Assembly: GCA_964370265.1 (NCBI GenBank)
Contig: CAYJIP010000001.1
Coordinates: 130,828-194,827 of the forward strand
From: an uncultured Clostridium sp.
GTDB taxonomy: Bacteria > Bacillota > Clostridia > TANB77 > CAG-508
Length of the DNA: 64,000 nt
Direction: 5' to 3'
Positions 15,837-17,399 of this stretch are shown here, piece after piece. Numbering within the stretch: position 1 is the first letter of the stretch; each line of letters starts with the position of its first letter. A model generated the notes under the pieces. It had not been told where the DNA came from. It did no database searches and worked only from the letters and a program-made list of their open reading frames with translations. Both the position numbers and the translations under genes were made by a program.

Positions 15837-17399
15837 ATGTATCTGAAAAGTGAAGATGGAAAAAAAATAGATAATCTAGTGAAAAATGAAAAGGGTATAA
15901 CATTAATTGCTCTTATGATAACAATTATTGTTTTATTGATATTGGCAGGAGTATCAATAAGTTTAACGATAATAGACAATTCAATTGTTAATCAATCTGG
16001 AGATGCAGTTATATTAAGTAAAGAAGCAGCAGCAAAGCAACAAGTTAATCTGATATTGGAGTCTAGTTATGATAATTCAGGAAATATTAATTCCTCAAAA
16101 TTATTAGAACAATTATGGCAAATTGCTGATAGTATTCAAGGACAAAATGGAGAGATTGAAAAAGCTGATACACAGTTAGAGGATAATGATTATCCAATAA
16201 ATATTACAATAGATGGAATTACTATTACAATTGATAAACCAGCAGTTGGAAGTGAGACAATACCAACACCAACACTGACATCAAATGGTTCTTGGGATGG
16301 TAAAATTAATACACCCAAATTAGGAAATGATATGACTGCTATCGCATGGAACAATGAATTGGATGAAATAACACCACTTACGAATGAACAGTGGTATGAT
16401 TATGCGGATGTAACAATAGAAGGAATTAATACAAGTAAATGGGCTAATGCTAAAACAAGCGATGGCAGTTACTGGGTATGGATACCTAGATATGAATATA
16501 AATTAAATGAAGAAACACAAGAAATAGATATTAGTTTTATTCCTGTGTCTCAAACAGAACCATCATCAGGATATGAGATACATCCAGCTTTTCAGGATGG
16601 AAGTGATACTAATTATACAAATGGAGAATGGGATGCGGAACTTTCTGGTATATGGGTAATGAAATTCGAAGCTAGTAATTCAGGTAATAAACCGAAATCT
16701 ACTTATGGAGTTAGTAGTTGGAGAAGTACTACAATAGGGAACATGTATTCATATTCACAGACGCTTGATAGCACTAAAGGTAGCCATTTAATGAAAAATA
16801 GTGAATGGGGAGCAATAGCATACTTAAGTTATAGTAAATATGGAAGAAATGGAACTGAAATAACAATAAATTCAAGTTATTACTATACTGGTGGTGGTAC
16901 AGGTGATGCATATAAGACAAATATAGGTCAGAGTTCAACAGGAAATATAACTGGTATATATGATTTAAATGGTGGATCATATGAAAGAATGGCAGCGTAT
17001 ATATCGAATGGATATAGCAATTTAATTTCAAATGGATCAACATTTATATCAACAAGTACAGATGGAGCAGATACAACATATTACCAAAGTAAAAGTACAA
17101 AATATGTAACAGTATATCCATACAATAGTAGTCAAAGTAGTTTAAACAACTATAATGCATATTCATCAGTGAGTACAGATAAATATGGATATGGTGATGC
17201 GATATTAGAAATATCAACTACAGCTTCAAGTTCAGGAGGTTGGTATGGAGATAGTATTTCATATCCATACTCTTCATTAGTGTTTTTTATAAGAGGTGGA
17301 TATTACGGAGGGAACACATCAGCAGGTATTTTTAGTGTAGGAGGGACTTCTGGTTCATCAATTAGCACAAATGGATTCAGAGTTGTATTAGCATTTTAA
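15837..17399 (+). CDS. Modular pilin: pilin-like N-terminus fused to an FGE/SUMF1-like (C-type-lectin-fold) C-terminal module
   Basis: 520 aa. N-terminus VKNEKG|ITLIALMITIIVLLILAGVSISL. C-terminal motif series YWVWIPRYEY, IWVMKFEAS, EWGAIAYLS, GIYDLNGGSYERMAAY, FFIRGGYY and GFRVVLAF parallels the FGE-sulfatase domain consensus. RBS aaggag. Confidence 0.6.
   Translation: MYLKSEDGKKIDNLVKNEKGITLIALMITIIVLLILAGVSISLTIIDNSIVNQSGDAVILSKEAAAKQQVNLILESSYDNSGNINSSKLLEQLWQIADSIQGQNGEIEKADTQLEDNDYPINITIDGITITIDKPAVGSETIPTPTLTSNGSWDGKINTPKLGNDMTAIAWNNELDEITPLTNEQWYDYADVTIEGINTSKWANAKTSDGSYWVWIPRYEYKLNEETQEIDISFIPVSQTEPSSGYEIHPAFQDGSDTNYTNGEWDAELSGIWVMKFEASNSGNKPKSTYGVSSWRSTTIGNMYSYSQTLDSTKGSHLMKNSEWGAIAYLSYSKYGRNGTEITINSSYYYTGGGTGDAYKTNIGQSSTGNITGIYDLNGGSYERMAAYISNGYSNLISNGSTFISTSTDGADTTYYQSKSTKYVTVYPYNSSQSSLNNYNAYSSVSTDKYGYGDAILEISTTASSSGGWYGDSISYPYSSLVFFIRGGYYGGNTSAGIFSVGGTSGSSISTNGFRVVLAF

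Follow-up and report, generated by a model that had tools for sequence, protein, structure and literature searches.

A candidate modular type IV pilin with a static lectin-fold module, related to retroelement-diversified proteins, in an uncultured Clostridium

Introduction

What is the role of a large protein that begins like a type IV pilin, ends like a formylglycine-generating enzyme (FGE), and is encoded beside a pilus locus? This question is raised by a 520-amino-acid (aa) protein encoded at positions 15837 to 17399 of a 64-kb stretch of DNA (64,000 nucleotides, the whole of what was analysed, hereafter called the window) from contig CAYJIP010000001.1 of an uncultured Clostridium sp. An initial annotation of this DNA had placed the gene at the end of a pilus locus, and the gene was indeed found directly after pilC. 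In this study, the protein was examined through structure prediction, profile searches, and comparison with its relatives. We consider it probable (roughly 60%) that its product is a minor type IV pilin of modular build, processed by PilD, that displays a fixed binding surface; the identities of its domains were observed, and its incorporation into a pilus is what we infer. The closest structural relatives of its C-terminal module are the variable proteins of diversity-generating retroelements (DGRs), a link that is absent from the initial annotation.

Results

Domain organization of the protein

The gene and its parts are as follows; coordinates are positions in the window.

15837..17399, plus strand: coding sequence of the modular type IV pilin, 520 aa, with a C-terminal FGE-type C-type-lectin module
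15837..15896, plus strand: predicted prepilin leader, aa 1-20 (MYLKSEDGKKIDNLVKNEKG); N_methyl match to residues 16-39
15897..16241, plus strand: pilin-like module, aa 21-135; hydrophobic alpha1 helix, second helix, beta-hairpin
16242..16283, plus strand: short linker, aa 136-149 (PAVGSETIPTPTLT); model confidence (pLDDT) below 50 at residues 137-141
16284..17396, plus strand: predicted FGE-type C-type-lectin module of the DGR variable-protein class, aa 150-520 (model, Foldseek, profile)
17244..17396, plus strand: equivalent of a DGR variable region, aa 470-520; putative ligand-binding surface, static here

Both the bounds of the open reading frame (ORF) and the six motifs read in the initial annotation were recovered, the translation containing, in the order proposed, YWVWIPRYEY, IWVMKFEAS, NSEWGAIAYLS, GIYDLNGGSYERMAAY, FFIRGGYYGG, and TNGFRVVLAF. 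The layout had been described as a pilin-type N-terminus followed by a linker of 150-200 aa. The N-terminus stood, and in place of the long linker a pilin-like module was found at residues 21 to ~135, leaving only residues ~136-149 as linker. The arrangement is modular, with two confidently modelled blocks split by a low-confidence stretch at residues 137-141.

An AlphaFold model of the protein, built on 74 homologues, had a mean pLDDT of 86.3, with values mostly above 90 from residue 150 onward. When Foldseek was used to search the PDB, the top match was TaqVP, the DGR variable protein of Thermus aquaticus (E 1e-11, TM 0.49, probability 1.0), followed by Mtd (1e-3), FGE from three organisms (6muj, 2q17, and 1y1h; E 0.02-0.1, TM on the target ~0.4), OvoA, EgtB, and TvpA (0.047). 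By sequence, the family profile matched TaqVP (3.7e-5), SUMF2 (0.086), and PvdO (0.45). The FGE family PF03781 was matched by 6 of the 74 relatives (best 3e-5), and one relative is named 'FGE family protein' by NCBI. The window protein itself gave no PF03781 match at E ≤ 10, and it had no useful NCBIfam or PHROGs match. Taken together, the confident model and its matches confirmed, as a predicted structure, the FGE-type C-type-lectin fold that had been proposed for residues 150-520.

The similarity in fold to FGE, OvoA, and EgtB, together with the NCBI name, would also accord with a secreted or pilus-borne enzyme of the FGE/EgtB/OvoA type, and seven polar residues (H249, H317, K276, K320, D376, D454, and E458) are invariant in the family. 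D376 is joined by an invariant G379, and E278 is present in 54 of the 74 members; a Ca2+ site like that of FGE, suggested by a motif alignment, was considered and is not claimed. However, the window protein contains no cysteine, whereas FGE, whose catalytic triad has been described (PMC6328139), requires the pair Cys336/Cys341, and FGE Cys-pair chemistry is thereby excluded. Moreover, the protein carries no DinB-type iron domain, unlike EgtB and OvoA; the active-site segment of FGE, which coincides with the variable region in TaqVP (PMC6328139), corresponds to the hypervariable region of the window family; and the top structural matches are non-enzymatic variable proteins. We therefore regard an enzyme as highly improbable. 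Of the 'binding or enzymatic module' suggested initially, FGE chemistry fell with the missing cysteines, and the nearest class is that of the non-enzymatic DGR variable proteins.

When viral models were searched with Foldseek, phage tail fibres were matched (E 1e-11 to 1e-9), and TaqVP itself is prophage-encoded (PMC6328139), as would be expected if the gene were the remnant of a prophage receptor-binding (tail fibre) gene. Against this, no phage genes flank the gene, which has pilC upstream and a ROK kinase gene, rpsB, tsf, pyrH, and frr downstream; its product begins as a pilin, and the lectin module had no PHROG match. A prophage origin of this kind is barely credible.

The N-terminal pilin module and the pilus locus

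The N-terminus consists of a short charged leader ending in KNEKG (MYLKSEDGKKIDNLVKNEKG), followed by ~20 hydrophobic residues (ITLIALMITIIVLLILAGVSIS), and we infer from sequence that cleavage would occur after Gly20. Gly20, Ile21, Thr22, and Leu23 each recur in at least 90% of family members, and N_methyl was matched by 66 of the 74 relatives. Residues 9-127 share 33% identity (E 1e-9) with a 140-aa pilin of the same locus, and the family profile reached solved pilins, namely PilE1 (E 0.003, positions 13-121) and geopilin (E 0.005). The predicted secondary structure consists of a long helix at residues 23-76, a second helix, and a beta-hairpin at residues 121-132. Since the homology to the locus pilin, the profile matches to PilE1 and geopilin, and the N_methyl matches in 66 of 74 relatives agree, this region is best read as a pilin module rather than a bare anchor.

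The upstream genes would supply the machinery for such a protein.

6398..15612, plus strand: type IV pilus locus (Pfam matches, ORF translations)
9145-9567: 140-aa pilin of the locus; N_methyl match above the Pfam cut-off
9731-10564, plus strand: prepilin peptidase candidate; A24_N_bact (PF06750), 5e-30

The locus contains a PilM/PilN-like fusion, a PilO-like protein, the 140-aa pilin, the prepilin peptidase, two minor-pilin-like ORFs, PilB, PilT, and PilC, with Pfam matches to T2SSE for PilB (5e-102) and PilT (1e-45), to T2SSF for PilC (2e-23), and, weakly, to PilN. In the peptidase candidate, the N-terminal A24 model alone was matched; the catalytic Peptidase_A24 model gave no match at E ≤ 0.01. 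Judged by its gene content, the locus appears to be complete and of monoderm type, and it would process and assemble the window protein. A promoter-like site matching the consensus at 11 of 12 positions lies at 6269-6296, ~100 nt upstream of pilM, and is a candidate promoter for the pilus operon.

Pilin-like N-termini were found at 9145-9567, 10980-11474, 15837-17399, and 25966-27498, reading G/ITLIS, G/VTLTS, G/ITLIA, and G/ITLIS around the predicted cleavage site (slash). In all four, the residue at mature position +5 is Ser or Ala, replacing the near-universal Glu; in the ORF at 10583-11011 (G/FSGAD), it is Asp. These N-termini suggest a pilus system that assembles without Glu5.

The family and the case for display outside a pilus

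More than 5,000 clusters at 90% identity matched the window protein. When the lectin module alone was searched, 3,124 representatives at 50% identity were matched (471 at E ≤ 1e-30), and hardly any of the matching clusters has a recorded Pfam domain. The best 80 genome loci, taken from GTDB species representatives, all came from metagenome-assembled genomes (MAGs) of uncultured Clostridia or Bacillota, and, judging by the isolate names, the sources include rabbit, mouse, chicken, and human gut. The N-termini of full-length representatives were mostly class-III-like. Three giant relatives, P0121 (4340 aa), P0122 (2338 aa), and P0134 (4516 aa), matched the module in nine, four, and five stretches, respectively, and may thus contain it in repeated copies; P0121 begins with a pilin-like N-terminus.

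Several observations weigh against incorporation of the window protein into a pilus. Pilus genes were present within 10 kb in only 1 of the 80 loci and lacking in the other 79, the closest homologue (P0002) sits among housekeeping genes, and the adjacency of the window gene to the pilus locus may be incidental. The gene also lies outside the pilus operon as an apparent separate transcription unit. The N_methyl match of the window protein is sub-threshold (E 0.002; 18.1 bits vs a Pfam cut-off of 21.2), and its mature position +5 is Ala25 rather than Glu, as in at least 90% of the family. When the pilin module was modelled alone, the model was of low confidence (pLDDT 68), and Foldseek returned a best E of 2.7 with no pilin match. 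A minority of representatives carry a Sec or lipoprotein signal or belong to the giant proteins with multiple modules; because some relatives carry the module in these settings, the module does not need a pilus.

Many of these points would be expected if the protein were a non-pilus surface binding protein, its pilin-like N-terminus acting only as a membrane anchor or as the export signal of a pseudopilus-type system, and its module held at the cell surface. The 80 loci also showed several paralogues per genome, more than one pilus tip would easily use, and some relatives retain the alpha1 helix only. However, the homology to the locus pilin spans ~120 residues, well beyond the hydrophobic helix, and a complete pil locus lies upstream; as the initial annotation had supposed, the N-terminus is thus more than a signal anchor. 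The 140-aa locus pilin likewise lacks Glu5, with Ser at +5, so that the absence of Glu5 appears to be a trait of this pilus system and not a defect of the window protein. Moreover, the gene stands directly after pilC, and modular pilins are known to be pilus-borne (PMC8179133). Display outside a pilus is a serious alternative that we nevertheless consider unlikely.

Adenine-specific variation in relatives

The 80 loci were also searched by an adenine-mismatch scan anchored on the 3' ends of the genes. In 3 of the 80, the gene 3' end was repeated downstream with mismatches almost only at adenines of the downstream copy, the pattern of a DGR variable region (VR) and its template repeat (TR). In locus L041, 17 of 21 mismatches between VR and TR fell at template adenines, and the cleanest 100 nt contained 15 mismatches at adenines and none elsewhere. 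In locus L014, all 11 mismatches fell at template adenines, and the repeat was followed by an Avd-like ORF and then by a reverse transcriptase (RT) with an internal deletion. In locus L031, the count was 22 of 32. The template repeats of all three encode Asn-rich peptides (for example, ...FFIRGGNYGNGSNAGLFYFNNTNGNSNSNNSFRAVLAF), and the proteins of all three loci start with the same pilin-type N-terminus.

The L014 cassette (8614-9742 of that locus) is decaying: the Avd-like ORF is intact, and the RT is split by the deletion, which appears to remove the catalytic core. The L031 TR matches both the adjacent gene, encoding a 963-aa pilin-fn3-lectin protein, and a second pilin-lectin gene on another contig; no RT was found within ~10 kb of this TR. 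This is a case, judged from the repeats, of one template with at least two targets, the RT being elsewhere or lost. The genome concerned, MAG CAYJKK01, is the closest related genome sampled, with the L031 TR at 11513-11668 and the L081 match at ~11480-11635.

L081, which lies on a different contig of the same genome as L031, encodes P0002, whose identity to the window protein is 52%. Between its 3' end and the L031 TR, identity is 82% overall and 89% at non-A positions, a pattern that marks L081 as a remote DGR target. More widely, ~25 of 62 family genes had a 3' segment whose G+C content exceeded that of the rest of the gene by +0.10 to +0.24 and whose codons were 87-100% NNY (N, any nucleotide; Y, pyrimidine), whereas only 3 of the 62 had a template within 10 kb. 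Because so many genes are VR-like and so few lie near a template, action in trans is suggested, and trans-acting DGRs may be widespread in these low-GC genomes. Loci L032, L044, L018, L035, and L070 are examples in which the last 153 nt are GC- and NNY-rich with no template within 10 kb.

A few candidates did not hold up. Loci L003, L030, and L055 were flagged as DGR-like by a generic repeat scan and were rejected on inspection, as their repeats proved to be intergenic and AT-rich, to be a repeated domain whose mismatches are mixed, or to come from paralogous glycosyltransferases. The RT adjoining the L069 gene was also rejected as a DGR RT; it is of group II intron type (YADD, maturase-like C-terminus).

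The static state of the window copy

Residues 470-520, the final 51 of the protein, aligned without gaps, and at equal length, to the VRs of L031 and L041; the colinear relatives also include L014 and, with its template on another contig, L081. Entropy was computed on the 74-member alignment, and the 15 positions at which the L031 template encodes Asn had a mean of 3.19 bits, vs 1.45 bits for the other positions of 470-520 (p 8.5e-7); the mean for residues 150-469 was 1.40 bits. Residues at these 15 positions were mostly Y, N, S, D, G, and H. Residues unreachable by AAY-to-NNY mutagenesis (K, E, Q, M, and W) made up 5% at the 15 positions vs 26% at other hypervariable sites.

The family also offers grounds for asking whether the window gene is itself still being diversified as a DGR target, in trans, by a retroelement beyond the window: a remote target exists in L081, whose VR matches the L031 TR on another contig, and the ~25 GC- and NNY-rich genes have no TR within 10 kb. 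Against this, the 3' end of the window gene had a GC excess of only +0.03 (vs +0.10 to +0.24 in ~25 relatives) and an NNY fraction at variable positions of 0.47 (vs 0.87-1.0), with host-like codons that include TTA, GTA, and GGA at 'variable' sites, and adenines are frequent in its scaffold codons. This 3' end was 46% identical to the L031 TR, which comes from the nearest relative among the genomes sampled. In the window, the best ungapped identity to the gene 3' end was 47%, equal to background, and hence no TR was found; the 3' end is not part of any repeat family; the L014 RT and Avd, used as tblastn queries, gave no match; and ten mid-sized ORFs (315-427 aa) between 30 and 64 kb contained no RT domain. 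Ongoing diversification in trans is accordingly improbable.

By its codons and composition, then, the window copy reads as a static family member. The patterns of the family suggest, most simply, that it is a frozen product of past diversification. A point against this history is that DGRs may alternatively have captured, at a later time, a scaffold that was already variable.

Expression signals

The signals around the gene are as follows.

15708..15739, plus strand: hairpin with T-rich tail 3' of pilC (terminator scan; RNA fold -17.2 kcal/mol, z = -5.5)
15774..15802, plus strand: sigma-70-like promoter, TTGAAA-17-TATAAT, 11/12 (consensus match only)
15824..15829, plus strand: Shine-Dalgarno sequence AAGGAG, 7 nt before the ATG (read from sequence)
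17479..17512, plus strand: AT-rich 14-bp hairpin 3' of the stop codon (RNA fold -15.4 kcal/mol, z = -6.5)

The hairpin at 15708-15739 probably ends the pilus operon transcript. Downstream of it, the near-consensus promoter reported in the initial annotation was recovered with an 11/12 match, and it is the top-scoring promoter match of the region. Promoter-like sites of at least 11/12 numbered 12 on the plus strand, vs ~4.3 expected from Markov simulations, and several of them lie directly upstream of genes; at default scan stringency, 29 sites were seen vs 29.4 expected from shuffles. Because the coding strand is enriched in matches of 11/12 or better, though there is no such excess of default-stringency sites, it is plausible that the pilin-lectin gene forms a separate transcription unit. 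The terminator of its own that had been assigned to the gene was also found, in the form of the hairpin at 17479-17512, which is a likely terminator. The consensus terminator scan did not flag this hairpin, which has too few G-C pairs; the G+C content of the window is 26%.

Other features of the window

A second gene of similar architecture lies outside the pilus locus.

25966..27498, plus strand: divergent pilin and lectin-motif paralogue, 510 aa

It carries the motif order in divergent form (FVWVPVG, GGYYIARYEAS, NFREWSTE, SRGGNYNG, VSFRAIM) and sits among housekeeping genes, flanked by a gene for an RseP-like protease and one resembling glycogen phosphorylase. For its 3' end, too, no TR was found, and when the family profile was aligned to it by hhalign, the N-terminus alone was reported.

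Two AT-rich intergenic tandem repeats were observed, one at 39090-39196 with a 16-nt unit (AAAAATTAAAAATGTA) in ~6 copies, and one at 30212-30299 with a 22-nt unit in 3 copies, just after the glycogen phosphorylase-like gene. The ORF at 57908-59119 encodes an N-terminal domain of dipicolinate synthase subunit A (DpaA_N, 8.6e-12), which suggests that the host is a spore-forming, Clostridium-like organism.

Discussion

Under the reading that we favour, in which the product of the window gene is a minor pilin of a type IV pilus, modular and with a fixed binding surface, the prepilin would be cleaved after Gly20 by the peptidase of the pilus locus, and the processed pilin would be loaded by the PilB/PilC/PilMNO machine. 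Because of its bulk, the protein would be expected at the pilus tip, like PilB and PilC of Streptococcus sanguinis. There, its Tyr/Ser/Gly-rich surface (positions 470-512) could bind a ligand, on which PilT-driven retraction would then pull. Adenine mutagenesis may have produced the surface itself, which would since have been frozen into a fixed specificity, one of several paralogous specificities per genome.

Close relatives in other uncultured gut Clostridia appear to be still under DGR rewriting, which points to an unstudied family of pilus adhesins. For uncultured gut Clostridia, we put forward, as a tentative proposal that falls short of being probable, a large repertoire of type IV pilins with an antibody-like lectin surface at their tips. 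Adenine mutagenesis by DGRs would write this surface, in many cases in trans, with one template serving several scattered genes, and variants would then be frozen as fixed specificities, the window gene among them. For the window gene itself, the outcome is a well-supported annotation as a static adhesin-type pilin, with no new mechanism, and the interest lies mainly in the family that it exposed, which almost entirely escapes Pfam and NCBIfam. If the members are pilus-borne, the family would reveal the way in which little-known gut anaerobes first diversify their adhesion specificities and later fix them, and it would offer compact, naturally randomised binding scaffolds.

Modular pilins, C-type-lectin DGR targets, and DGR-diversified type V adhesins are each already known. 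The initial annotation had described a possible adhesin class that is not known to have been characterised. That description still fits, although the architecture had already been catalogued: the combination IPR012902-IPR005532 (N_methyl with a sulfatase-modifying-factor domain) is given for 8 proteins, as a table entry without analysis, in Dataset S1 of Raynaud et al. (2021). The window family shares this two-part architecture, but its members mostly escape both signatures, and the entry draws no link to DGRs. A rare GspG-type pilin domain holding a VR is mentioned in passing elsewhere (PMC11661182). Beyond that mention and the table line for 8 proteins, we found no paper joining modular pilins and DGR variable proteins for type IV pili, and pilins are absent from the major surveys.

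Compared with FGE (SUMF1, PF03781), the window module has the same fold subtype and motif order (WVxIP, (Y/F)E, EWxxA, G(I/L)YD(L/M)xG, RGG, FR), but it differs in having no catalytic cysteines and no PF03781 match, in its large inserts, and in its presumed extracellular display on a pilin. With TaqVP, Mtd, and TvpA, it shares the FGE-type C-type-lectin fold and a C-terminal binding segment on a conserved ...RGG...G.F...FR scaffold, and relatives of the window protein have true TR/VR pairs; the window copy differs in lacking a TR, an RT, Avd, and the NNY codon pattern, and in possessing an N-terminal pilin module. Unlike the window protein, TaqVP and TvpA each consist of a single domain, and Mtd is a trimeric phage tail-fibre protein.

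PilB and PilC of S. sanguinis, which carry a vWA module and a concanavalin-A-like lectin module, respectively, resemble the window protein in their class III signal, small pilin module, short linker, and bulky binding module, as well as in their monoderm host and the location of the gene at a pil locus (PMC8179133). Bulky modular pilins of this kind are displayed at the pilus tip (Raynaud et al. 2021, PMC8179133). The window protein differs from them in the fold of its module, in the absence of Glu5, and in plausibly having its own transcription unit, and most members of its family are encoded outside pil loci.

The DGR-diversified type V pilus tip adhesins of Bacteroides (Macadangdang et al., preprint, PMC11601372), a study in which type IV pili and Firmicutes are not mentioned, likewise carry a C-terminal C-type-lectin variable domain on a pilus subunit in gut bacteria, and static and diversified versions likewise coexist among them (PMC11601372). 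They differ in being assembled by strand exchange and in belonging to Bacteroidota, whereas the window protein is type IV pilin-like and from Clostridia. If our reading of the family is correct, it would represent the type IV pilus counterpart of these DGR-diversified type V pilus adhesins of Bacteroides.

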